In this document: positions 131-36,654 of the stretch, one piece after another
Layout: the number at the start of each line of letters is the position of its first letter
Position numbering within the stretch: the stretch's first letter is position 1
Source of the DNA: Rhodocyclaceae bacterium
GTDB taxonomy: Bacteria; Pseudomonadota; Gammaproteobacteria; Burkholderiales; Rhodocyclaceae
Reading direction: 5' to 3'
Assembly (NCBI GenBank): GCA_025361105.1
Contig: JANYAW010000330.1
Coordinates: 1 to 39,036 of the forward strand
Length of the DNA: 39,036 bases
Program-made: the position numbers and the translations under genes
The notes under the pieces: generated by a model
Databases searched by the model: none
Told to the model about the DNA's origin: nothing
Seen by the model: only the letters and a program-made list of their open reading frames with translations

Positions 131-330
131 GGGAATTCCAAGCTGATGAACAAACTGCCTTAAGCTAAGCTCGCAAACGACGCGAGAAAAGCCTCAGCGC
201 AGCGTTGATTGAGCGTAGCAAGAAAGAACTCGGCTGTCGGGCCGAGTCCCGACTCGGACGTTGAGTAATCAACTATCTACATCGGATACCCACAAAACAA
301 AAACCAACGGCGTGCTGTCAGCACCAACTA
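131..330 (+). repeat. Diverged, expanded copy of the long-form intergenic repeat; it ends in the 22-mer motif
   Basis: Shares GGGAATTC, GCGTAGC, the CTCGGCTGT..GCCGAG hairpin (230-253) and the terminal GGCGTGCTGTCAGCACCAACTA (309-330) with the copies at 13581-13686 and 21615-21708, but has extra internal sequence. Confidence 0.4.
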
Positions 331-3249: not shown

Positions 3250-3271
3250 CTTTGGATTTTAACGACTCGGA

Positions 3272-3313
3272 AGTTGGTGCCGGCTACACGCCGTGTTGGC
3301 GCTACCAACTGAT
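3272..3313. repeat. Palindromic copy of the motif family (AGTTGGTGCCGGCTACACGCC gtgtt GGCGCTACCAACTGA)
   Basis: Reverse-orientation near-copy of the 22-mer plus an inverted partner. Terminal 7 bp AGTTGGT/ACCAACT pair perfectly. Lies in the divergent MATE / oxidoreductase spacer. Confidence 0.75.
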
Positions 3314-3361
3314 GCCCTAAAATGTTTCATCCGTCCACGCCGCTTCACTTGGTCACTTTGC

Positions 3362-6300: not shown

Positions 6301-7168
6301 TGAAAGCGACACACTGATTCCGGTGATAAGAAATCCTGCGCAATTGGATGAAAGCGACGCAGTGTTTTATTTCCCCGGCTGCGGCTCGGAGCGCTTGTTC
6401 TCGCAAGTCGGACTTGCCACCCAGGCCATGCTCTGGCACGCCGGTGCAACGACAGTGTTGCCACCGGGCTATCTGTGCTGCGGCTATCCGCAAACGGCGG
6501 GCGGCGAGGAAGACAAAGGGCAGGCGATTTCCACCAGCAATCGCGTACTGTTTCATCGCGTCGCCAACACGCTCAACTACCTCGACATCAAGACCGTGGT
6601 GGTGAGTTGCGGCACTTGCATGGATCAGCTGCTCAACTATCAATTCGACAAGATTTTCCCCGGTTGTCGCTTGCTCGACATCCACGAATATTTGTACGAG
6701 AAAGGCATCAAGCTTGATGGCGTGAAGGGTGTGCAATACATGTACCACGAGCCTTGCCACACGCCGATGAAACATCACTCGGGCATCAAAGTGGTGAATG
6801 AGTTGATGGGTCAAAAAGTTGATTTGAACGATCGCTGCTGCGGTGAATCCGGCACGCTGGCAGTGACGCGGCCAGATATTTCCACGCAAATTCGCTACCG
6901 CAAGCAGGAAGAGATGGAAGCTGGTGCGGCGAAGATTCGTGACCGAAATTTGCCAATTGGTACTGGTGATACGCCGTCAAATTCCGCCGTGAAAATCCTC
7001 ACCTCCTGCCCATCCTGTCTGCAAGGTCTCGCCCGCTATTCTGATGATGCAAATGTTGAAGCCGACTACATCGTGGTTGAAATGGCCAAGGCGATTCTGG
7101 GGCCAAACTGGATGCAGGATTATTTGAGCAAAGCCGGTGCCGGTGGGGTTGAACGGGTGTTGCTATGA
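3362..7168 (+). CDS. DUF3683-containing FAD-binding and (Fe-S)-binding oxidoreductase (GlcD-like FAD domain fused to GlcF/HdrD-like Fe-S and CCG domains; YdiJ-related)
   Basis: 1268 aa from ATG 3362 ([21 protein letters not shown]). FAD PCMH motif [13 protein letters not shown]; ferredoxin-type clusters [11 protein letters not shown] and [12 protein letters not shown]; C-terminal cysteine-rich CCG repeats. Confidence 0.9.
6954..6978 (-). repeat. Intragenic near-copy of the motif (CAATTGGTACTGGTGATACGCCGTC)
   Basis: 19 of 22 matches to the reverse consensus CAGTTGGTGCTGGTGACACGCC. Translated in the host gene as PIGTGDTPS. Confidence 0.7.
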
Positions 7169-9309: not shown

Positions 9310-10227
9310 CTAGCTGATTTGCTGTATGCCAGCGATCTGCCAGCCGCGTGAGCCATCGGTGGGTTTGGTCAAATGCCAGATTTCTTCAAAGGCTTGTGGT
9401 GCGTTGTGGATGTCTTCGCGCAATTGGCCGAAGTAACGCACGCTGGCGATTTGGCGATTGTCTTCGGTGACTACGCTCAATAATTCAGCATCAAGTTGGA
9501 CAACATCCGTTTGTGATTTGACGCTGCCACGCTCGTGCAATTGCATCTGGATTTCGGCGAAAACTTCCGGCGCGGTGAATTGCCGAATGTCGTCTAAATC
9601 GCCGCGATCGTTGGCGGCTTGCAGGCGAACGAAATTGAGCTTGGCTTGGCGCAGAAATCCGACAACATCGAAATCAGCGGGGATGTTGCTAACGACAGTT
9701 GGCGGCGCACTTGACGGCGTGTCACCAGCACCAACTGGCAAGCTTGGCGAAGGCGATGGTGGTATCGCATCAAAGTGCATAGGCGTTGCAGATGATCCCG
9801 CACCGGCGTATTGCGTACTCAATTCAGGCTCGCGCTTTCGCGTCAGCCAGCGGAACAAAAACAACGCCGCCATGGCCAACAAGGCAATCATCATGAAATT
9901 TGCTACGCCTTCACCCATGCCGAAATGCGACAGCAATGCGGCCAAGCCGACACCAGCGGCAAGACCCGCCAGCGGTCCCAGCCAGCGACTCATTCCTGGC
10001 TTCGCTGCCGCCGCAGCGGGTGCGGGCGCAGGTGCGCTGGTGGTGGCATTCGATGGCACGGCATTTTGCACTGGCGCAGCTGGTGGTGCAGATTGGCGTG
10101 GAGTGCTGCGCGTCATGCCAATAGACTTACCGCCACCGAGGCGCGCGGCTTGTGCGTCACTTACAGCCAGGCCAATTGTGAACGCAAAGGCGATGAGCAC
10201 CAGGAGAAAATTTTTTGAACGATTCAT
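9310..10227 (-). CDS. Tim44-like domain membrane protein
   Basis: 305 aa from ATG 10227 (MNRSKNFLLVLIAF...). Has a signal/anchor, an Ala/Pro-rich linker, a TM segment and a C-terminal Tim44-like domain. The longer ORF would overlap ubiE. Confidence 0.85.
   Translation of the reverse strand: MNRSKNFLLVLIAFAFTIGLAVSDAQAARLGGGKSIGMTRSTPRQSAPPAAPVQNAVPSNATTSAPAPAPAAAAAKPGMSRWLGPLAGLAAGVGLAALLSHFGMGEGVANFMMIALLAMAALFLFRWLTRKREPELSTQYAGAGSSATPMHFDAIPPSPSPSLPVGAGDTPSSAPPTVVSNIPADFDVVGFLRQAKLNFVRLQAANDRGDLDDIRQFTAPEVFAEIQMQLHERGSVKSQTDVVQLDAELLSVVTEDNRQIASVRYFGQLREDIHNAPQAFEEIWHLTKPTDGSRGWQIAGIQQIS
9696..9738. repeat. Complete palindromic unit of the motif family (CAGTTGGCGGCGC acttgac GGCGTGTCACCAGCACCAACTG)
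   Basis: Exact consensus 22-mer at 9717-9738 plus a left arm at 9696-9708. Terminal CAGTTGG/CCAACTG pair perfectly. Lies inside the Tim44-like CDS. Confidence 0.85.
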
Positions 10228-13580: not shown

Positions 13581-13686
13581 ACTGGGTTATCCGACGGCGG
13601 CGGAGAAGGGAATTCGCAAAGCACCGCTTTGCGCCTGTGTAGCGGCTCGGCTGTGCAATGCCGAGACTCCACGCCAGCACCAATTG
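13581..13686 (+). repeat. Long-form intergenic repeat, copy A
   Basis: Aligns with 21615-21708. Hairpin 1 is CGCAAAGC acc GCTTTGCG (13615-13633) and hairpin 2 is CTCGGC tgtgcaat GCCGAG (13646-13665). It ends in CCAGCACCAATTG, related to the 22-mer. Confidence 0.8.
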
Positions 13687-13709
13687 CGTTCAGTTGCGAA
13701 GGAATTTTC

Positions 13710-14663
13710 ATGCTCAGTTCCATCATTGATAGCGCACTGACGCGAACCGCTAAATTTTTTTCGCGCGAACGTATGCCCGCCGTCGCCACCATATCATTTC
13801 GACAAGTGGAAACATCCGTTGGCAATGTCCGCTTGTACGACTCCGCGCCAAATGACGCAGATGACGACGCGAGTAAACCATGTGTGGTGTTTGTGCCCGA
13901 TGGCCCGAACGTGATTGAACATCACGCGGCACTTTTTGCCTTACTTACGCCGCACCTTCGGGTGGTCTGTTTCGACATGCCGGGCTTTGGATTTTCATTG
14001 CCTAGCGCAAGCTATGGACATGGTTTGAATCAAGGCGCCGCCGCAGTGATTGGTGTGCTTGATGCGCTGGCGATTTCAAAAGCCTGGTTGGCGTTTAGTT
14101 GCGGCAACGGTTTCTATGCGATGCGCACGGCGCAGTTGGCACCCGATCGGGTGGCCGGATTATTCCTCACGCAAACTCCGGCGCTCAGTGTGATGGCACC
14201 ATGGACGCGACGTATTTTGCCGCGCGTTCTACGCACGCCGGTGCTCGGACAAATTCTGGTGTGGCTGACACGCAAGAAATTAGCCCACGGTTGGTATCAC
14301 ATTTCCTTGCCGCGTAACACGGACGCCAGCACCTATCAAACGACGGCCAATGACGCACTGACGGCAGGCGGCAGTTTTTGTTTGGCCGGCATTACACAAG
14401 GTTTGGCGCGCGAAATCGACACGCCGATGAACGGCATTCGTGCGCCGTGCACTTTGCTTTGGGGTGAGAAAGATCACTCACACAAACACATCGATCCGAC
14501 GTCCTTGCTCAAAGATATTCCACATGCCGAAATCATCCGCTTTGCTGATTGCGGACATTTTTCCGACTTGGAACAGCCAGCGCGTTATGCAGAATTGCTG
14601 CTGGCGCGGATTGGTGGGCTTAGCAACGGCGTATCGCCAGCACCAACTGGCGGGGTTGTTTAA
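13710..14663 (+). CDS. Alpha/beta hydrolase fold protein
   Basis: 317 aa from ATG 13710. CVVFVPDGPNVIEHH...FDMPGFGFS...ADCGHFSDLEQP is typical of the fold. The nucleophile position reads AFSCGNG rather than GxSxG. Confidence 0.8.
   Translation: MLSSIIDSALTRTAKFFSRERMPAVATISFRQVETSVGNVRLYDSAPNDADDDASKPCVVFVPDGPNVIEHHAALFALLTPHLRVVCFDMPGFGFSLPSASYGHGLNQGAAAVIGVLDALAISKAWLAFSCGNGFYAMRTAQLAPDRVAGLFLTQTPALSVMAPWTRRILPRVLRTPVLGQILVWLTRKKLAHGWYHISLPRNTDASTYQTTANDALTAGGSFCLAGITQGLAREIDTPMNGIRAPCTLLWGEKDHSHKHIDPTSLLKDIPHAEIIRFADCGHFSDLEQPARYAELLLARIGGLSNGVSPAPTGGVV
14608..14648. repeat. Palindromic unit of the motif family forming the 3' end of the hydrolase gene
   Basis: GATTGGTGGGC ttagcaac GGCGTATCGCCAGCACCAACTG, translated as IGGLSNGVSPAPTG. 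Confidence 0.85.
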
Positions 14664-16318
14664 GGTTTCTTTTTCACGGGAACCGCTTCAAACGTACAAC
14701 GCTCGAACTCATTGCCTCGATCAAGCACGTGCAGTAGCGTCACGCGCTCGTTGATGCCTTCATTGAACACGTCGACAAATCGACCGATGCGGAAAGTTCC
14801 AGCCGGAACAACAATCGCTTCAGGTTCATTCACCGCTGGCATGGCGGGTAGGCGCATGCCTTGGTAATAAGGCTCATTGGTTTTCGGATCGATGACGCGC
14901 ACCGCAACTGGTAGCGCGGTGCCGGGGAATAATTGGATGCCGATACTGACGGTTGGATTTTCGCCATCTTCTTGCAAAATCCAGCGTACGCCGCCGACCA
15001 TGAAACGCGTCGAACCGCCAAGCTTGATGGCGATTAGCTGGCCGCTGCCGACGCGAACGCCGACCTTGAGCGGGCGTTGCAAGCGCACCCCGTTGGCCGA
15101 TTGATCGAGCAATTGCCAATCATCAATGAGCGACCAGTTTTCAACCTGATAGCCGTGGGTGTCGCTGTAATTTTCGTCTTGGCGACGCGCGCGCTGGCCG
15201 AATGCGGCCATTTCTTCGCGTTCTGCAAGCAGCATCGTGGAATCAATCACTGGCGGATGGAACGGTTTTCTGCCCGACAAATAGTAATGCACGGCTTCAA
15301 AGCCGACGATAAATTCACAACCACCCGAGACTGGCCGACGGTCATGCTTGCGCTTGGCGCCGCCCTTGCACCAACGTTGATAAACACGTTCAAGCAGCAA
15401 GCTGGTCGCGGGTTGCGTGCAGTCCTCGCCCAAATGCAAATGTGCAGGAAGTTCGCCTTGTTGCAGCATCACCAGTCGCGCTTTGATGCTCTTGCGCAGT
15501 TCGTCGGTATCAAGCCAGCGCGCACCAGGCACATCACGCGCGATATACCCGGCCGGCCGGTCGGAATCAATATCAACGAATAAGGGCGAAGCACGCGTGC
15601 CATCGGTTGGCGCACCACCAGTGAGCAATGCAAGCTTGTTGGCCCAACGACGCGACCAACGCGCAATCCAATCCAGGTGGCGCGATGGCAACTCGAACGG
15701 GCTGGCAGCGTGGAGTAAATGCGATTCGCCATAGGCCGCTAGTACGTTGGTTGGCTCATTGCCGTGACGCGCTGCGTCGCGCACTTCAAGCGTGGTGAGT
15801 TTGAGTTTTTCGGCCAGCGCGAACACCGAATGAAGGCGTCGCCAAAAACTTCCGTCGGGTAATTTTTCGCCACGACACAAATCGACTTCCCAATCGGCAA
15901 ACACCGAGAGTGCACGCTGCGCGATTAAAGCGCCTTGACCTGCCACTCCCGCATCACCACCCGCCACCGCATCAAACAGGCGCAAATAACCGACGAGCAT
16001 GGCTTGCCAAACCGCCATCGTGCCATCAAGCGCGGATTGCTCTGGAGGACTTAAGGGCAGCGGTCTATTGGCAAATTTTTTCGCCACATCGCGTTGCACT
16101 TCAATCACCGTTTGACGTATCGCTTCGAGCAATTTGAGCCGTGCCGACGATGCCAATGAAAAGCGGTGGAGCAAGTTTAATTGGCGCAGCAACATGACTT
16201 GTGCTTGCGACGGATTGGCCATCGGTACGGAAGCCAGCCAGTCGTTACAGGCCGTCACCGTCAAAAAAGCTGGCGGGAATTCGGCGTAAGTGTCGGGTAG
16301 ATCGAAATGTGTGCTCAT
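14660..16318 (-). CDS. Hypothetical protein with C-terminal PilZ-like domain
   Basis: 552 aa. The C-terminal third looks like a beta-barrel and carries DQSANG (DxSxxG) about 30 residues after QRARRQ. ATGA overlap with the upstream HIT gene. Confidence 0.6.
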   Translation of the reverse strand: MSTHFDLPDTYAEFPPAFLTVTACNDWLASVPMANPSQAQVMLLRQLNLLHRFSLASSARLKLLEAIRQTVIEVQRDVAKKFANRPLPLSPPEQSALDGTMAVWQAMLVGYLRLFDAVAGGDAGVAGQGALIAQRALSVFADWEVDLCRGEKLPDGSFWRRLHSVFALAEKLKLTTLEVRDAARHGNEPTNVLAAYGESHLLHAASPFELPSRHLDWIARWSRRWANKLALLTGGAPTDGTRASPLFVDIDSDRPAGYIARDVPGARWLDTDELRKSIKARLVMLQQGELPAHLHLGEDCTQPATSLLLERVYQRWCKGGAKRKHDRRPVSGGCEFIVGFEAVHYYLSGRKPFHPPVIDSTMLLAEREEMAAFGQRARRQDENYSDTHGYQVENWSLIDDWQLLDQSANGVRLQRPLKVGVRVGSGQLIAIKLGGSTRFMVGGVRWILQEDGENPTVSIGIQLFPGTALPVAVRVIDPKTNEPYYQGMRLPAMPAVNEPEAIVVPAGTFRIGRFVDVFNEGINERVTLLHVLDRGNEFERCTFEAVPVKKKP

Positions 16319-16773
16319 GGGGCGATGGCCTTGTTCAAATCTTTCAATTCATCTGCAAGCATTGCAGAAAGTGTAGCGCAAGACACGGAGATGCGAGTTG
16401 GTGCTGATAACACACCGTCATTTGCCTTCCCCCAGATCGGTGCAGGAAAATGACTGTCGTCCCTCCATCTTGGAATGATATGCCAATGCAGATGCGGTAC
16501 CACATTGCCGAGGCTGGCGAGATTGATTTTGTCTGGATTGACCAAGCGCCGTAGCACAAGTTCGACCGCCAACACGACCCTCATCAAGTGCATACTTTCG
16601 CGCGGCGACAATTCACTCATTTCGGCGCAATGTTGATTCCAAATCACGCGACAAAACCCTGGGAAAGCTTGTTGCTCTGCGCCTTCAACTTTGACTACGC
16701 GACAAAGATAAAGATCGTCTTGCCAGACGAACTCGCCGCCGAGTGACTCACACAAAGGACATGGCGTATCCAT
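16315..16773 (-). CDS. HIT family (histidine triad) hydrolase
   Basis: 152 aa; histidine triad HLHWHIIPR. Confidence 0.85.
   Translation of the reverse strand: MDTPCPLCESLGGEFVWQDDLYLCRVVKVEGAEQQAFPGFCRVIWNQHCAEMSELSPRESMHLMRVVLAVELVLRRLVNPDKINLASLGNVVPHLHWHIIPRWRDDSHFPAPIWGKANDGVLSAPTRISVSCATLSAMLADELKDLNKAIAP
16395..16419 (-). repeat. Intragenic copy of the motif (GAGTTGGTGCTGATAACACACCGTC)
   Basis: Contains the exact core GTTGGTGCTG. Translated in the HIT gene as DGVLSAPTR. Confidence 0.75.
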
Positions 16774-16845
16774 AAGTCACAGAACAAAAATGAAATGGCG
16801 AGTGAATGCGTTAGCCGCTCAAGAAACTATTTAAGTTTGCTTAAC

Positions 16846-16903
16846 GGCGCCTCACCAGCACCAACTGACGAAAATCGCTTGGCTGATGCTGGTGAAACCG
16901 GCG
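16846..16903. repeat. Inverted pair of motif copies forming a hairpin downstream of psiF
   Basis: Forward copy GGCGCCTCACCAGCACCAACTG (16846-16867) and degenerate reverse copy CTGATGCTGGTGAAACCGGCG (16883-16903). CACCAGCA (16853-16860) pairs perfectly with TGCTGGTG (16887-16894). Confidence 0.75.
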
Positions 16904-16906
16904 AAT

Positions 16907-17197
16907 TTATTTCGCCGCCGCTGCGTCAGCTTCGCATTTCTTCATGAAAGCTTTTTTGGCCGCGCCTGCCAGTGGCTTGCCAGCTTTGCTGACGGCTTTT
17001 TCAGCACAACCAGAAGCTGCCTTGGGTGCTACAGCTGGTGCCGCGCCACCTTCGCATTTTTTCATGAAGGCGGTTTTGGCCGCGCCTGCCAACGGCTTGC
17101 CGGCTTTGCTAACAGCCTTGCTCTCGCAGGTTTCGCCAGCAAAAGCAAATTGGGCTACAAAAATTGAAGCAATTGCAATACCGGTCAATGCGCGCAT
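16907..17197 (-). CDS. psiF: PsiF-repeat protein (phosphate starvation-inducible PsiF family)
   Basis: 96 aa from ATG 17197, preceded by AGGAG. Signal peptide, then two copies of KAVSKAGKPLAGAAK.AFMKKCE (120-bp period in the DNA). Confidence 0.85.
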   Translation of the reverse strand: MRALTGIAIASIFVAQFAFAGETCESKAVSKAGKPLAGAAKTAFMKKCEGGAAPAVAPKAASGCAEKAVSKAGKPLAGAAKKAFMKKCEADAAAAK

Positions 17198-20788: not shown

Positions 20789-21601
20789 TCACATCCGGAA
20801 ATGTTCGCCCAGATACACGCGGCGGACGGCTTCATTATCGACAATCTCGTCGGGATGTCCAGCGGCTAAAACGATGCCTTCATTGATGATGGTCGCGCGG
20901 TCGCAAATGCCTAAGGTTTCGCGCACATTGTGGTCGGTAATCAGCACGCCGATGTCGCGATCTTTGAGGAAATGAATGATTTTTTGGATGTCCAAAACAG
21001 CAATTGGATCAACCCCCGCGAAAGGCTCGTCCAGCAAAATGAAGCTTGGCCTTGTCGCCAACGCGCGCGCAATTTCGACGCGTCGCCGTTCGCCACCTGA
21101 GAGCGACACCGCAATATTTTTGCGGATGTGGTCGATGTGCAATTCTTCGAGCAATTCACCCAATCGTGTTTCCAGATTGACCGCGTCGAGGTCTTGCAAT
21201 TCCAGTACGGCGCGAATGTTATCTTCGACCGAGAGCTTGCGAAATACCGAATTTTCTTGCGGTAAATAAGACAATCCCATGCGCGCACGGCGATGTATCG
21301 GCAAGTGCGTGAGCCGTGTATTGCCGTGGCCGCCGCTCAAACGAATCTCGCCACCGTCGGCGGCTACGAGGCCAACGACCATATAAAAACACGTCGTTTT
21401 CCCAGCGCCATTGGGGCCGAGCAATCCCACAACTTCTCCCGCTCCGACATCAAAAGACACGTCTTTAACGACTGTGCGGCTTTTATATTTCTTGCGCAAA
21501 TTGTGCGCGGAAAGACGTGCCGGTTGCGGCGTAATGTCGCCTTCATTGGCAACACCTGCGAAGAGATCTGGCGTGAGTATGTCGGGGACAATGTGTTTCA
21601 T
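20789..21601 (-). CDS. lptB: LPS export ABC transporter ATP-binding protein
   Basis: 270 aa from ATG 21601. A GTG at 21619 is possible but would run into the repeat. Walker [10 protein letters not shown]; ABC signature LSGGERRR. Confidence 0.92.
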
Positions 21602-21614
21602 CGTGCGCTTTCTT

Positions 21615-21708
21615 GACACGGCGGCGAAGCAGGGGTTTCACGATGCACTGCTTCGCGCCTGCGTAGCGGGTCGGCTGTGCAATGCCGACACTCCCCACCA
21701 GCACAAAC
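21615..21708 (+). repeat. Long-form intergenic repeat, copy B
   Basis: Aligns with 13581-13686. Hairpin 1 is GCGAAGCAG ... CTGCTTCGC (21624-21656) and hairpin 2 is GTCGGC tgtgcaat GCCGAC (21670-21689). It ends in CACCAGCACAAAC. Confidence 0.8.
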
Positions 21709-21740
21709 GGGCGAACTGTTATGCGGTGCGTGGCAATAGC

Positions 21741-23488: not shown

Positions 23489-23983
23489 CTAATTCACTCC
23501 TCCGATACGACTCAATAAACCTTGCAAGGCATGGATGACGGCCTGACGACGAATGCTTTCTCGGTCGCCGATGAACTCGCATTGCTCAGTTTGTACAGCG
23601 TGGTCTTTCATGCACCAAGCAAAGCATACGGTGCCTACTGGCTTATCAGGTGAGCCACCGGTCGGCCCAGCAACACCAGTGATCGCCAGCGAAATTTGTG
23701 CTGCTGAATGACACAACGCGCCTGCCGCCATTTCGCCTGCCGTCTCAAGACTTACCGCGCCATACGCCTCAAGCGTCGCCAAGCGCACACCAAGCATGTC
23801 GATTTTTGCTTGATTGGAATAGGTCACAAAACCACGCTCAAACCACGCTGAACTGCCCGCCGTGTGAGTGATTACTTGCGCCACCCAGCCTCCGGTGCAT
23901 GATTCGGCTGTTGCAATCGCCAGTTGGTGCTGGCGACACGCCGTCCCCAGCACGACAGAAAGTTGGGCGAGTTGGTCATCCAT
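23489..23983 (-). CDS. pncC: CinA-family C-terminal domain protein / nicotinamide-nucleotide amidohydrolase
   Basis: 164 aa; the conserved TAESCTGGW motif lies near the N-terminus. Confidence 0.88.
   Translation of the reverse strand: MDDQLAQLSVVLGTACRQHQLAIATAESCTGGWVAQVITHTAGSSAWFERGFVTYSNQAKIDMLGVRLATLEAYGAVSLETAGEMAAGALCHSAAQISLAITGVAGPTGGSPDKPVGTVCFAWCMKDHAVQTEQCEFIGDRESIRRQAVIHALQGLLSRIGGVN
23921..23945 (-). repeat. Intragenic copy of the motif (CAGTTGGTGCTGGCGACACGCCGTC)
   Basis: Exact core. Followed by CCCAGCACGACAG (23946-23958), a degenerate inverted arm. Translated in cinA as TACRQHQLA. Confidence 0.8.
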
Positions 23984-29790: not shown

Positions 29791-31071
29791 CTATGGTAAT
29801 AAAGATTCGAGCGCGAACAATTGCGCCGCGTTTTCGCGCTGTCGAATCAAATGTGCATCGCACCCATCGATCATCACTTCCACCGCACGGGGGCGTGTGT
29901 TGTAGTTCGATGCCATCGCCATGCCATAAGCACCAGCGGAAAGAATTGCCAGCAAATCGCCTTCATTTAGCGCCAAATTTCTATCGTGGCCGAGCCAGTC
30001 ACCGGATTCACAAACCGGGCCGACGATTTCGTAGGTTCGCTTCTGCAACGGCGTGTCATCAGCACCAACTGGCGTACTTTGTACTTTCACAATCTCATGC
30101 CAAGCGTCATACATCGCAGGTCGCATCAAATCATTCATCGCTGCATCGACGATAGCAAAGTTTTTGTCGATGCCATGCTTGAGCACATCCACGCGCGTCA
30201 ACAGCAACCCTGCATTGCCAACCAGAGAACGCCCCGGCTCAAAAATAAGTTTCTCTTTGCGGCTGGCCAATTTCGCTAGCGTCGGCGCGAGATATTCGGC
30301 AGTGCTCGGTGCAATTTCGTCGCTGCGGTAGGTGATACCCATGCCCCCGCCGACATCAATATGCTCGATGACAATGCCGTCTTCAGCAAGTGCGTCAACC
30401 AACGCCAATAATTTATCTACCGCTTCCGCCGCCGGAGCAGGATCGAGAATCTGAGATCCAATATGGCAGTCAATACCGACTACTTTGATATTTTCCAAGC
30501 TCGCGGCATGCCGATAAATGGCGCGCGCTTCGGTGTAGGCAACACCGAATTTGCTCGACTTTAGTCCGGTCGAAATATACGGGTGCGTTTTAGCATCCAC
30601 ATCGGGATTGACTCGTAGCGAAATTTTCGCGATGCACTCCAATCTTGCTGCCACCTCGTTTAGGGTCGTCAATTCGCTGGCTGATTCGATATTGAAACAG
30701 TGGATGCCAACTTTCAGCGCCTCGGTTATTTCAGCAGGCTTTTTGCCGACGCCAGAAAACACGATTTTGTCTGGCGATCCCCCGGCCGCCAACACGCGCG
30801 CCAACTCGCCGCCTGAAACAATATCGAAGCCAGCGCCGAGTCGTGCAAACACGTTGAGTACGGCAAGATTTGAATTGGCCTTGATGGCATAGCAAACCAT
30901 CGCGCGATCAATCAAGCCATGCGCGCGCAAGGTGTCGGTGTAGGACAAATAAGCTTGGGTCAGCGCGGCACGTGAATAGACATAGCAAGGCGTACCAAAA
31001 CGCGCGGCAATATCTGCTAGCGACACGCCTTCAACACAAAGGCTGCCGTTACGTTCAAAAGCTAGCGTCAT
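29791..31071 (-). CDS. lysA: Diaminopimelate decarboxylase
   Basis: 426 aa, PLP lysine context YAIKAN, GGGMGI, and VGPVCESGD. Confidence 0.95.
   Translation of the reverse strand: MTLAFERNGSLCVEGVSLADIAARFGTPCYVYSRAALTQAYLSYTDTLRAHGLIDRAMVCYAIKANSNLAVLNVFARLGAGFDIVSGGELARVLAAGGSPDKIVFSGVGKKPAEITEALKVGIHCFNIESASELTTLNEVAARLECIAKISLRVNPDVDAKTHPYISTGLKSSKFGVAYTEARAIYRHAASLENIKVVGIDCHIGSQILDPAPAAEAVDKLLALVDALAEDGIVIEHIDVGGGMGITYRSDEIAPSTAEYLAPTLAKLASRKEKLIFEPGRSLVGNAGLLLTRVDVLKHGIDKNFAIVDAAMNDLMRPAMYDAWHEIVKVQSTPVGADDTPLQKRTYEIVGPVCESGDWLGHDRNLALNEGDLLAILSAGAYGMAMASNYNTRPRAVEVMIDGCDAHLIRQRENAAQLFALESLLP
30027..30071. repeat. Intragenic unit of the motif family (..AGGTTCGC ttctgcaac GGCGTGTCATCAGCACCAACTG)
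   Basis: 22-mer at 30050-30071 with the exact core. The upstream spacer/left arm resembles those at 14608 and 16835. Translated in lysA as TPVGADDTP. Confidence 0.8.
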
Positions 31072-32386: not shown

Positions 32387-32451
32387 AGCAAGATTAAGCT
32401 CCCTCTCCCGCACGCGAGGCGCGATGGCTAAAGCGGTGTTTCGTTATTGCA

Positions 32452-32498
32452 AGTTGGTGCTGGTGATGGAATGGCCCGTTCATCGGCCACACGCCGTT
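32452..32498 (-). repeat. Interrupted copy of the motif (AGTTGGTGCTGGTGA + 23-nt insert + CACGCCGTT)
   Basis: The two halves of the reverse consensus are separated by tggaatggcccgttcatcggcca. Confidence 0.6.
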
Positions 32499-32510
32499 AA
32501 ATAGGAAATG

Positions 32511-33439: not shown

Positions 33440-33459
33440 GGCGGTGCGATGCCGACACT
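33440..33459 (+). repeat. Fragment of the long-form repeat core
   Basis: GGCGGTGCGATGCCGACACT matches 18 of 20 positions of GGCTGTGCAATGCCGACACT at 21673-21692. Confidence 0.5.
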
Positions 33460-33565: not shown

Positions 33566-35413
33566 TTACTTAAGTTGGCTTAAATCCCGTACCGCCCCGG
33601 TATCGGCTGAGGTGGTCATCGCAGCATAGGCCATCAGCGCCATCGAGACTTCGCGCTGCCGATTTGCTGGCTTCCAGGCTGTCGTGCCACGCGCGATCAT
33701 GGCTTGACGGCGTGTCGCCAGCACCAACTGATCGACTGCTAAATGAATCGTACGATTCGGGATGTCGATTTCTATCGCGTCGCCTTCTTCGACCAAGGCA
33801 ATAGTGCCGCCCGCTGCCGCTTCTGGCGACACATGGCCAATGGCAAGGCCAGAGGTGCCGCCGGAAAAGCGGCCGTCAGTGAGTAGCGCGCAGACTTTGC
33901 CCAAGCCCTTGGATTTCAAATAGGAGGTTGGGTAAAGCATCTCTTGCATGCCTGGCCCGCCTTTGGGACCTTCATAACGAACGACGACCACGTCGCCGGC
34001 GATAATTTCGTCGGCGAGGATTTTTTCTACGGCTTCTTCCTGCGATTCGCACACGCGTGCACGGCCGGTGAATTTGAGTATCGATTCATCGACCCCGGCG
34101 GTTTTGACGATGCAGCCTTTTTCGGCGATGTTGCCGGACAGCACAGCCAAGCCGCCATCTTTTGAATACGCGTTGGCCTGATTTCGAATGCAGCCATTGA
34201 CACGATCCAAATCCAGCTTGGGAAAACGTCTTTCCTGTGAAAACGCGACTTGCGTCGGCACACCACCGGGTGCAGCGCGATAAAAGTCTGTCACGGTCGA
34301 GTCGTTTGTAGTCGCCACATCCCACTGCGCCAGCGCGTCAGCCATCGTTTTGCTGTGCACAGTATACGTGTCCGTATGCAGCAAACCCGCACGGTTTATT
34401 TCGGCTAACAACGCCATGATGCCGCCGGCGCGATGCACGTCTTCCATATGATATTTCTGCGTCGCCGGTGCCACCTTGGCCAAGCAGGGAATCTTGCGCG
34501 ATAAACGGTCAATATCTTGCATGGTGAAATTGACTTTGGCTTCGTGCGCGGCGGCCAACAAATGCAACACCGTATTGGTCGATCCACCCATGGAAATATC
34601 TAGCGCAACGGCGTTTTCAAACGCCTCGAAACTCGCAATCGAACGTGGCAACACTGATGCATCGTCCTGTTCGTAATAGCGTTTTGCCAAATCAACCACG
34701 ATCCGTCCGGCACTCAAGAAAAGTTGCTTGCGATCTGCATGTGTGGCTAACAATGAGCCGTTGCCGGGTAAGGACAAACCCAGCGCTTCGGTCAAACAAT
34801 TCATCGAGTTCGCGGTAAACATGCCCGAACACGAACCACAAGTCGGGCAGGCAGAACGTTCCATCGCGGCGACATCGGCATCGCTGTTTTTACTATCGGC
34901 CGATTCAACCATCGCGTCGACCAAATCGACCATGCGATATTCGCCATGCCATTTCACTTTGCCCGCTTCCATTGGGCCGCCGGAAACGAACACCGTCGGG
35001 ATGTTGATGCGCAATGCCGCCATCAACATCCCCGGCGTAATTTTGTCGCAATTGGAAATGCATACCATCGCATCGGCACAATGCGCATTGACCATGTACT
35101 CCACCGAATCAGCAATCAGCTCGCGGCTGGGCAAGCTGTACAACATCCCGCCATGACCCATCGCGATGCCGTCGTCGACCGCAATGGTGTTGAACTCTTT
35201 GGCCACGCCGCCCGCGTCTTCAATTTCACGGGCGACCAATTGACCCAAATCTTTCAGATGTACATGTCCCGGGACAAATTGGGTAAAGGAATTGACCACC
35301 GCGATGATGGGCTTGTCAAAATCACCATCCTTCATGCCCGTCGCCCGCCACAAAGCGCGTGCGCCCGCCATGTTGCGGCCGTGAGTGGTAGTACGAGAAC
35401 GATAGACAGGCAT
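33566..35413 (-). CDS. ilvD: Dihydroxy-acid dehydratase
   Basis: 615 aa, [26 protein letters not shown]..., with [11 protein letters not shown]. Confidence 0.97.
33709..33730 (+). repeat. Intragenic copy of the motif (GGCGTGTCGCCAGCACCAACTG)
   Basis: Exact core preceded by CTTGAC. Translated in ilvD (minus strand) as QLVLATR. Confidence 0.8.
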
Positions 35414-35482: not shown

Positions 35483-36631
35483 ATGAATTCTCCCTTCGAC
35501 CAATCCCACAACCACCTCGCTTGGCATTCGTCCAAATGGGAAAAATATCGCGGCACCGACATCATTCCCTTGTGGGTGGCCGATATGGATTTCGCCGCGC
35601 CACCGGCATTGCAAGCGGCGCTTGCCGCGCATGTCGAGCATGGCGTTTTTGGCTACACCCGTGTGCCACGCAATTTGCCACATGTAACCGTGGAATATTT
35701 GCAGCGGCACTACGATTGGGCAATCGATGACGCCTCGCTAGTATGGCTGCCGGGCTTGGTACTCGGCATCAATTTAGCGGTGCGCGCGGTATGCGCCGAG
35801 GGCGACGCCTACGCGACATTCACGCCCGTCTATCCGCCGTTTTTAGACGCCGCAAAACACCAACAGCGTGGTTTGATTGCCTTGCCCTTGATCACCATGG
35901 TCAATGACGCCATGGATTTCCGCATTGATTTTGTGGCGCTGGAAAGCAGCCTCAGTGCCAATCCGCAAACACGACTGTTGTTGATTTGTCATCCGCATAA
36001 TCCGGTCGGCAAAGCCTGGTCGGCGGACGAACTGCGGCAACTCGGTGCCATCGCGGTGCGCCACGATTTGATCATTTGTAGCGATGAAGTGCATTGCGAT
36101 TTGATATTGGATGCCGCACAGCGACATCTGCCATTTGCGCTGGCAAACCCTGAATTGGCGGCGCGCACCATCACCCTGATGGGCATGGGCAAAACCTACA
36201 ACATCGCTGGTTTGGGTGTGGCATTTGCAGTGATTGAAGACGCAACGCTACGCGAAAAATTTCACGCCGCGATGACGCATTTGGTGCCGGATATCAATGC
36301 CTTTGGCTACACCGCGATGCTCGCCGCACTGACTGAATGCGAGCCATGGCGACAAGAATTACTGGCTTATTTGCGCGTTAATCGTGATTGCGTTATTGCG
36401 ACGATGCAACGCTTAAAGATTGCAGTAACACGTGTTGAGGCGACCTATTTGGCGTGGCTGGATTGCCGACATATTCCCGATGCACACCGGTTTTTTGAAC
36501 AGCACGGCGTGGGTCTATCGAACGGTGCGCCGTTTGGTGCGGCGGGATTTTTGCGACTGAATTTTGCTTGTCCGCGCAGCGTGTTAAATGAAGCACTCTT
36601 GCGCATGGAGCAATCTCTCGCGCCGATTTAA
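35483..36631 (+). CDS. PLP-dependent C-S lyase / aminotransferase class I-II (PatB/MalY family)
   Basis: 382 aa; [20 protein letters not shown] and the SDEVHCD...GKTYNIAG region (PLP Lys context) are typical of PatB/MalY. Confidence 0.85.
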
Positions 36632-36632
36632 C

Positions 36633-36654
36633 GGCGTGTTACCAGCACCAACTG
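36633..36654 (+). repeat. Intergenic copy of the motif (GGCGTGTTACCAGCACCAACTG)
   Basis: Exact core preceded by TTTAAC. Starts 2 nt after the lyase stop codon and ends 12 nt before the lgt ATG. Confidence 0.85.

Follow-up and report, generated by a model that had tools for sequence, protein, structure and literature searches.

Contig JANYAW010000330.1 of a Rhodocyclaceae bacterium (assembly GCA_025361105.1), analysed here over its 39,036 nucleotides (the window), carries in two intergenic spacers two direct copies, A and B, of a repeat of about 100 nucleotides (nt), the long form, together with a dispersed motif of about 27 nt, the short motif. Copy A has the phoR stop codon (13580) on its 5' side and an alpha/beta-hydrolase gene, which probably starts at the ATG near 13711, on its 3' side and on the same strand; the PhoR and hydrolase assignments are Pfam matches. 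Copy B lies between the recX stop codon (21741, minus strand) and an lptB-like ABC-ATPase gene probably starting at the ATG at 21601-21603 of the minus strand; both neighbours are on the opposite strand, so that copy B is antisense to each. The two copies are 83% identical over 90 ungapped nt (13594-13683 and 21618-21707; family D4) and contain a 32-nt core, GTAGCGGSTCGGCTGTGCAATGCCGASACTCC, found exactly twice in the window, where shuffled sequences give an expectation of zero. Both have ACGGCG at the 5' end, and their 3' ends, CCAGCACCAATTG in copy A and CCAGCACAAACGG in copy B, are both CCAGCACCAA-like. An earlier interpretation made from the letters alone (the sequence-only reading) had aligned copy A with this second locus, noted a nearly identical core and seen the two halves of the short motif in the ends of the long form; all of this was borne out, the halves being present at both ends of both copies. 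It had also started the element right after the phoR stop codon; the position near the stop is correct, but copy A begins about 10 nt past it, with the best boundaries given in Table 1. No sigma-70-like promoter or T-tract terminator was found at copy A or B, and nothing suggests that phoR, recX or lptB is served by either of them; both are slightly degenerate intergenic copies.

Copies A and B belong to a larger family. A scan of genome contigs with the core pattern GTAGCGGN6TGTGCAATN6ACTCC gave no match, the source species evidently being absent from the GTDB representatives, and look-ups of the exact PhoR and IlvD proteins also returned no record. A scan with the short motif placed most matches in two activated-sludge Rhodocyclaceae metagenome-assembled genomes (MAGs), JADKHX01 and JADKDD01. 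BLAST of copies A and B against the loci from these MAGs recovered four further long forms, all in JADKHX. A degenerate pattern matching all six first copies retrieved 32 more from metagenome contigs, and a covariance model (R1) built from 30 copies added five that the pattern had missed, for a total of about 40 distinct loci from one Rhodocyclaceae MAG and two metagenomes. The source lineage is a wastewater Rhodocyclaceae with a G+C content of about 54%. An alignment of thirty full copies spans 103 columns and has no indel, and the unit, of about 96-100 nt, consists of the short-motif halves (TTRACRGCG at the 5' end, CRCCAGCACCAACTGGCGAA at the 3' end) around a 72-nt module with three helices. 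Clear subfamilies with linked changes are apparent, ACGGG/CCCGT accompanying CTCGGC/GCCGAG and the loop TGTACTAA. The sequence-only reading had called for a search of Rfam: the whole window gave no Rfam match at gathering thresholds, and around copies A and B a search at E ≤ 10 returned only noise at E of about 5-10, none of it overlapping the element core. Motif strings retrieved unrelated primers and no relevant paper from the searchable literature, which also contained nothing relevant on uptake sequences, on repetitive extragenic palindromes (REPs) and their associated tyrosine transposases (RAYTs) or on such repeats in Rhodocyclaceae or Rhodocyclales. Neither Rfam nor the searchable literature thus yielded an annotated family of REPs or of miniature transposable elements with inverted repeats (MITEs) to which the copies belong, and the family is apparently undescribed so far. 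A doubled profile of the element-encoded peptide matched only three small proteins in the protein database and missed the known positive P0003, and is uninformative on distribution.

The long form folds into three helices, P1, H1 and H2, on which RNAalifold and separate pair counts agree. P1 (5 bp) pairs (A/G)C(A/G)GG with CC(T/C)G(T/C) and encloses H1 directly, with a 5-nt bulge; H1 (8 bp) reads CGCAAAGC-ACT-GCTTTGCG, the family hairpin being CGCRAAGC-ACT-GCTTYGCG; and H2 (6 bp) reads GTCGGC-8 nt-GCCGAC. Paired cells amount to 97% in P1, 97% in H1 and 98.5% in H2, and P1 of copy A has a single A·G mismatch. In a shuffle test over 34 copies, 90.4% of cells were paired and none of 500 shuffles reached the observed scores; when partners were slid by 1-3 columns, pairing fell to 26-39%. 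Both sides have changed at 10 pairs. Among pairs free of the search pattern, 27-60 covaries (GC 16, AU 9, GU 7), as do 29-58, 40-52 and 42-50, and the outer H2 pair 68-87 is intact throughout, as GC 25 times and as CG nine times. One copy found only by the model (L071, 5495-5597) has A-T at pair 38-54, a position where the pattern had forced C. The helices are, in short, maintained by compensatory change. This extends to 34 copies the compensatory change in hairpin 2 that the sequence-only reading had seen between CTCGGC/GCCGAG in copy A and GTCGGC/GCCGAC in copy B, and its suggestion of a selected RNA or single-stranded DNA (ssDNA) fold gains support from covariation as far as a single-strand fold is concerned. 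Its view of hairpin 1 as having unrelated stems in the two copies did not survive: the 3' arms are homologous, copy B differs from the family hairpin by two substitutions in the 5' arm, and the stem that had been drawn there (GCGAAGCAG/CTGCTTCGC) is an alternative pairing without support from family covariation. Folded singly, copies A and B have ordinary energies (z = +0.43, -1.43, +0.02 and -0.70), with no stability above that of shuffled sequence. In the pattern-free P1 pairs G·T outnumbers A·C by 10 to 1, or by 10 to 3 when two decayed model-only copies, read by eye, add two A·C; because G·T exceeds A·C, this suggests, not strongly, that the fold is important on the strand reading 5'-TTGACGGCG...CAACTG-3'.

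Two further column pairings belong with the fold. An outer helix proposed by RNAalifold at columns 20-23/64-67 was set aside because it is invariant and hence uninformative. Beside P1, columns 26/61 of alignment A4 covary in a non-canonical manner (A/G 25 times, C/A seven times, two exceptions), which reflects either a non-Watson-Crick pair or subfamily linkage.

The family has been copied to many loci, whatever the gene context and orientation. About 40% of the copies lie within open reading frames (ORFs), mainly antisense (11 against 4, by rough ORF calls), and at least 17 long copies are in frame within Pfam-supported genes, in four frames and both orientations. Their hosts encode GatB, HrpA, an acyl-CoA synthetase, an amine oxidase, an IcmF-like B12/MeaB fusion, a GDSL lipase, an M23 peptidase, an outer-membrane efflux protein, ThiF, a cytidylyltransferase, IspH/LytB, DnaX, a class II aldolase, an IF-2B/MtnA-family protein, a GT2 glycosyltransferase (all by Pfam) and the LysA of locus L050, with Pfam domains flanking or spanning the element. 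GatB has 31 residues at a loop that spans six in the P. aeruginosa structure. The consensus unit amounts to 32 codons with five of its six frames open, and the commonest intragenic frame is bottom-strand frame 1 (SPVGAGVECRLSTADPLRRRKAVLCETPAPPPS).

Filled and empty sites were found as well. An 81-nt unit (GGCGGAAC...ACTGCAAAAACGAA) is present in L072 and L078 and cleanly missing at the same repeat site in L090 and L025; no target duplication accompanies it at this one site, which reads TTGCTC, 81 nt, GTCGTAGC. The repeat invaded by this unit is a separate one of about 270 nt with terminal inverted repeats (CCTAGAAACCTCAGTTG...CAACTGAGGTTTCTAGG), resembling a classical MITE. At orthologous sites, lysA has the short motif in the window and the long form, 60 nt longer, in the MAG at the syntenic locus L050 (identity about 87%), and ispH has the short form in L057 and the long form, 81 nt longer, in L087; the landing of the element adds length at the site. 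The same ends also enclose other cargos: a 39-nt one (TTGGCGCTCCGCGAAGCGGACATCCCGCCATGCAGAGCA) at L058:2512-2581, L058:5905-5974 and L014:3682-3751 (MAG JADKDD), the two L058 copies sharing flanks and so being part of a larger duplication, and, in the medium form of the window, a 26-nt hairpin (TTTAACGGCG TGTGGCCGATGAACGGGCCATTCCAT CACCAGCACCAACTTGC) within about 105 nt that are missing from the close relatives L105, L106 and L107. In the lysA of L102 (protein P0006; 3480-3730) the same short motif is split by a different, in-frame insertion of 71 residues; this insertion contains two copies of a unit of about 48 nt (TCCGCTACGGCGARGAGCGCGTCTTKTGCGCGACCGCCTTGTAGCGCA), each preceded by TGT(T)TCATCA. 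The family is modular: the ends are kept and the centre varies. In L104, a distant relative, the recX-lptB spacer is too diverged to fix the insertion boundaries of copy B.

The short motif, ACGGCGTGTCRCCAGCACCAACTG, has nine matches in the window at three or fewer mismatches, against 0.00 expected, and about 12 copies on both strands at looser thresholds. It measures 24-30 nt (TTRACGGCGTGTCRCCAGCACCAACTGGCGAA) and recurs about once per 3 kb, with 12 sites between 307 and 36654. The 107 short copies divide almost evenly between intergenic DNA (54) and ORFs (53), where they occupy five of the six frames, the commonest being read as (S/P)VGAGDTP(L/S). Several of the proteins concerned show no change in length: IlvD aligns without gaps to solved homologues, with QLVLATRR where these have EEELAQRR, CinA aligns without gaps to its homologue in the Protein Data Bank, 5kol, and the L057 IspH loop with the short form is presumably as long as that of E. 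coli IspH. The LysA loop exceeds that of two solved homologues by seven residues and is of about equal length in a third (two residues shorter there); its peptide VGA[GD]DT, which the short motif encodes in its commonest frame, is widespread in Rhodocyclales LysA (homologues P0009-P0061, as VGA[GD]DT[AP]), Sulfuritalea included, and 21 kb of Sulfuritalea DNA contained no short motif. L104 (53% G+C, LysA 75% identical) retains the motif at three orthologous sites: lysA, cinA and the lgt junction. A comparison of insertion with substitution at the HIT-like ORF was precluded by its L104 neighbour not being homologous. The motif is thus old; some lineages keep it at the DNA level, and it can arise with no change in length, for which an uptake-sequence-like drive or short-patch conversion could be the source. 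A putative hairpin in it (TCRCCAG/CTGGCGA) shows no covariation over 116 copies, the pair C19-G32 being near independence (CG 45, CA 35, TG 18, TA 8); a REP-like structural reading of the short form was accordingly rejected, and the short motif is a sequence motif, not a structural one. The sequence-only reading had left two relations open, the short units as internally deleted derivatives of the long form or the long form as a short unit with a cargo. That the two forms are related is clear from the ends common to both. A short unit plus cargo fits the 26- and 39-nt cargos and the short/long sites in lysA and ispH, but simple internal deletion does not, given the unchanged length of IlvD and CinA, the lack of structural covariation in the short form and the differing junction bases described below.

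Table 1 Coordinates of long, medium and short forms in the window and of the repeat invaded by the 81-nt unit.
Feature	Position	Strand	Details
Long form, copy A, whole element	13591-13688	+	Repeat alignment; R1 107.1 bits at 13590-13692
Copy A, 5' end (5' half of short motif)	13591-13599	+	CCGACGGCG; family consensus TTRACRGCG
Copy A, helix P1	13605-13609 pairing 13634-13638 (region 13605-13638)	+	Alignment A4 columns 27-31/56-60
Copy A, hairpin H1 (inside P1)	13615-13622 pairing 13626-13633	+	Loop ACC; A4 columns 37-44/48-55
Copy A, hairpin H2	13646-13665	+	CTCGGC TGTGCAAT GCCGAG; pair 68-87 counts
Copy A, 3' end (3' half of short motif)	13672-13688	+	CGCCAGCACCAATTGCG; family consensus CRCCAGCACCAACTGGCGAA
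Long form, copy B	21613-21715	+	R1 108.9 bits at 21614-21716
Copy B, helix P1	21629-21633/21658-21662	+
Copy B, hairpin H1	21639-21646/21650-21657	+	Degenerate
Copy B, hairpin H2	21670-21675/21684-21689	+
Medium form	32446-32500	-	Same ends, 26-nt hairpin cargo
Short motif	307-330	+	Upstream of fumarase gene; 4 mismatches
Two overlapping inverted short motifs	3266-3314	.	Palindromic dimer; family D10
Short motif	6954-6977	-	In DUF3683/FAD-oxidase gene, PIGTGDTPS
Short motif	9714-9737	+	In Tim44-like gene, PVGAGDTPS
Short motif	14626-14649	+	Last codons of hydrolase gene
Degenerate short motif	16395-16418	-	3' part of HIT-family ORF; 5 mismatches
Short motif	16844-16867	+	Intergenic
Short motif	23921-23944	-	In cinA/pncC, TACRQHQL; 24/24 match
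Short motif	30048-30071	+	In lysA, PVGADDTPL; L050 ortholog holds long form in frame
Short motif	33707-33730	+	In ilvD, QLVLATRR; 24/24 match
Short motif	36631-36654	+	Aminotransferase/lgt junction; same site kept in distant relative L104
Repeat of about 270 nt with terminal inverted repeats	L090:1740-2010		81-nt unit absent
Same repeat	L025:380-650		81-nt unit absent
Same repeat	L072:400-720		Invaded by 81-nt unit
Same repeat	L078:520-840		Invaded by 81-nt unit

Three other places in the window deserve mention. The palindromic dimer of short motifs forms a near-palindrome of about 49 nt between the divergent MatE and DUF3683/FAD-oxidase genes. At 33440-33459, just upstream of a response-regulator gene, GGCGGTGCGATGCCGACACT shares 18 of 20 positions with the 3' half of hairpin H2 (family D19); R1 gave no match there, and the site may be a remnant of a long form. 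Inside a PsiF-repeat ORF, two 80-nt segments 120 nt apart are 84% identical (16920-17119; family D6), which is probably an internal repeat of the protein and not a mobile element.

Among known systems, the Rickettsia palindromic elements (RPEs) are repeats found in intergenic DNA and in frame within unrelated housekeeping genes (PMC10969869). Like the present family they are hairpin-forming, of about 100-150 nt, and often lie in frame in housekeeping genes, adding a peptide of about 30-50 residues. Repeated in-frame insertion into unrelated ORFs with host domains left intact, at least 17 of about 40 copies being intragenic, is what we found here, and by analogy the behaviour of the family is that of RPEs. 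It differs in its host, a free-living betaproteobacterium as against an obligate intracellular alphaproteobacterium, in its shorter unit (96-100 nt), whose cargos are interchangeable and whose bipartite ends are also those of a 27-nt motif, and in the use of at least four reading frames instead of one conserved peptide frame. RPE sequences seem to bear no resemblance to this family, and we claim no membership. Palindrome-associated elements derived from IS200/IS605 (PATEs) and the REP/REPIN-RAYT system offer another likeness, with asymmetric ends, no terminal inverted repeats, no target-site duplication, subterminal hairpins at both ends and, as P1 suggests here, structure on one strand; in our family H1/P1 lies towards the left end and H2 towards the right, the ends are asymmetric, and terminal inverted repeats and target-site duplication are absent. 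REPs are extragenic, whereas here ORFs contain at least 17 of the long copies and some half of the 107 short ones, and PATEs and RAYT-mobilized repeats differ also in that neither a TnpA or RAYT (by regular expression over 630 kb) nor a replication-strand bias was detected here.

With classical MITEs (Correia/NEMIS, ERIC, the Coxiella QMITEs) the family shares being small, non-coding, multi-copy and foldable, and it shows presence/absence and short/long polymorphism. MITEs are sometimes intragenic with in-frame fusion (PMC10969869). Unlike them, the family has no terminal inverted repeats, its ends TTRACRGCG and CCAGCACCAACTGGCGAA not being reverse complements, and no target-site duplication at the one filled/empty site. 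The short motif recalls the DNA uptake sequences (DUS) of Neisseriaceae and the uptake signal sequences (USS) of Pasteurellaceae: it is dense, lies on both strands and in coding and non-coding DNA, arises in genes by substitution with tolerated frames favoured, forms inverted intergenic pairs and is conserved at orthologous sites, and judged by its sequence behaviour it would resemble an uptake sequence more than an insertion element. It is longer (24-30 nt against 9-12 nt) and supplies the ends of insertion-type elements, a double role that we know of for no DUS or USS. Integron attC sites also combine conserved short ends with a centre of variable length and a single-strand structure conserved over sequence; here, however, the ends are not mutually complementary, and both cassette ORFs and an integrase context are lacking. 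A small structured repeat entering ORFs in frame is thus of a kind already known from Rickettsia and a few MITEs, but we know of no described family that has bipartite shared ends, interchangeable cargos and a length-neutral short partner.

From these observations we hold with good confidence that copy A belongs to a mobile structured repeat and is not an RNA gene. On balance, if by a narrow preference, we read it more specifically as one of a family of mobile repeats, dispersed, non-coding and non-autonomous, in an uncultured lineage of Rhodocyclaceae; their fold would be read on a single strand by an enzyme acting in trans. The likeliest intermediate would be ssDNA handled by an HUH/Y1-type (IS200/IS605- or RAYT-like) transposase, and the shared ends may let long, medium and short forms substitute for each other at a site. 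The left boundary lies 16-19 nt 5' of H1, after a TTRAC-like pentanucleotide, and the right boundary 10-14 nt 3' of H2; this spacing, with neither inverted terminal repeats nor target duplication, fits the HUH/Y1 idea. In IS608, TTAC lies 19 nt before the left hairpin and cleavage occurs 10 nt after the right one. The left flank is TTRAC in most copies and TTGCTC or TTGCTT in L072/L078, and is inseparable from the short-motif half. We regard an IS200/IS605- or RAYT-like mechanism as a tentative proposal, plausible by analogy but not the expected outcome.

Several results weigh against the single-strand mobile repeat as we read it. A search for HUH/Y1 motifs by regular expression over 630 kb of related DNA returned no match, although a single-copy gene elsewhere would escape it, and the genes of the window are all housekeeping genes with no transposase among them. 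Orientation relative to local GC skew is 12 against 13 at short loci, so the replication-strand bias expected of IS200/IS605 is not seen. REPs carry a GTAG that is not conserved here: 5' of H2 the copies have GTAG, GCAG, GGAG, AGAG, AAAG and others (NNAG, with AG fixed by the search pattern). On the top strand the terminal motif tolerates A·C (35) over G·T (14), opposite to P1, so that one strand does not fit the whole element. Columns 53-90 of the alignment are partly fixed by the search pattern, from which the copies found by R1 are free. The bases next to the junction differ, TGT in the short form against GCGG...SCA in the long form, and the long form therefore did not arise by simple, recent insertion into the short one. 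Finally, the length-neutral presence of the short motif in IlvD and CinA means that insertion, whether cut-and-paste or copy-and-paste, cannot explain that motif. As for a transposase in the window, a 552-residue ORF (14660-16318) with inverted short motifs on both sides was considered and rejected: it has no Pfam or NCBIfam match, and its positional counterpart in L104 is FimW-like.

A rival reading would have two layers, the short motif being a signal that spreads length-neutrally by uptake-like drive or short-patch conversion, and the 72-nt module and other cargos separate elements homing to its centre. The unchanged length of IlvD, CinA and apparently L057 IspH favours this, as do the spread of the motif over both strands and five frames with about half in ORFs and a preference for the benign frame SVGAGDTPL, the lack of covariation in its putative hairpin, its conservation at lysA, cinA and the lgt junction despite LysA being only 75% identical, and the finding of at least three unrelated cargos, besides the 71-residue insertion of L102, at the same central position. 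Yet the 81-nt unit of L072 and L078 entered a site other than a short motif, the halves of the motif within long forms match the core in conservation, as if travelling along, the differing junction-proximal bases leave no clean insertion point, the motif far exceeds the known DUS and USS in length, and the searchable literature contained no paper linking uptake sequences to Rhodocyclales; we consider such a division into two layers doubtful, if well worth keeping in mind. About as doubtful is a related proposal, in which the lineage would keep a genome-wide signal of about 27 nt, written length-neutrally by drive or short-patch conversion and doubling as docking ends for interchangeable structured single-strand cassettes of 26, 39 and 72 nt. 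If true, sites would switch between short and long even inside the essential lysA, ispH and gatB, and the whole would be a modular system mixing uptake-sequence and RPE/REP-like features, with no described counterpart.

Other explanations fare worse than the mobile structured repeat. Copying akin to that of short interspersed nuclear elements, in which a structured RNA of about 100 nt from one or a few master genes is reverse-transcribed and integrated, would derive the covariation from the master RNA and leave the copies dead on arrival; the strand-specific wobble tolerance in P1, the subfamilies with linked changes and the lack of both target duplication and inverted repeats would agree with it. 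However, neither a reverse transcriptase nor a poly-A-like tail nor a master locus came to light, the copies form no 5' truncation series, there is no matching Rfam RNA, and private compensatory changes in the single copies L026, L094 and L095 suggest many copy lineages under structural selection, which together make retro-copying improbable. A functional RNA tied to its neighbours, whether a 3'-UTR (untranslated region) stabilizer or terminator of phoR, a leader of the hydrolase or lptB gene or a small regulatory RNA, might be suspected from the sense-strand position of copy A directly after the phoR stop codon and from its conserved, covarying hairpins. We judge any gene-linked RNA function very unlikely, since copies are intragenic in many frames and orientations, about 40% of them in ORFs and mostly antisense, and neither promoter nor terminator is present at copy A or B; the antisense placement of copy B, the ordinary fold energies, the lack of an Rfam match even at the relaxed threshold and the absence of the element from the recX-lptB spacer of L104 point the same way. 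Chance similarity or a local segmental duplication could be entertained only because the window itself holds just two long copies, and is refuted by the zero shuffle matches expected and the roughly 40 copies at unrelated loci elsewhere.

Structured repeats that invade housekeeping genes in frame are best known from Rickettsia, where the mechanism was never solved, and the present family extends this to a wastewater lineage that is free-living and abundant. The dozens of copies, the clear covariation and the several filled/empty and short/long site pairs open the mechanism to comparative genomics and biochemistry. Annotation is affected as well: about 32 residues are added to GatB, LysA, IspH, DnaX and others, and ORFs can be fused or extended. 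Its companion 27-nt motif, length-neutral in genes and conserved at orthologous sites, poses the separate question of what process writes it.

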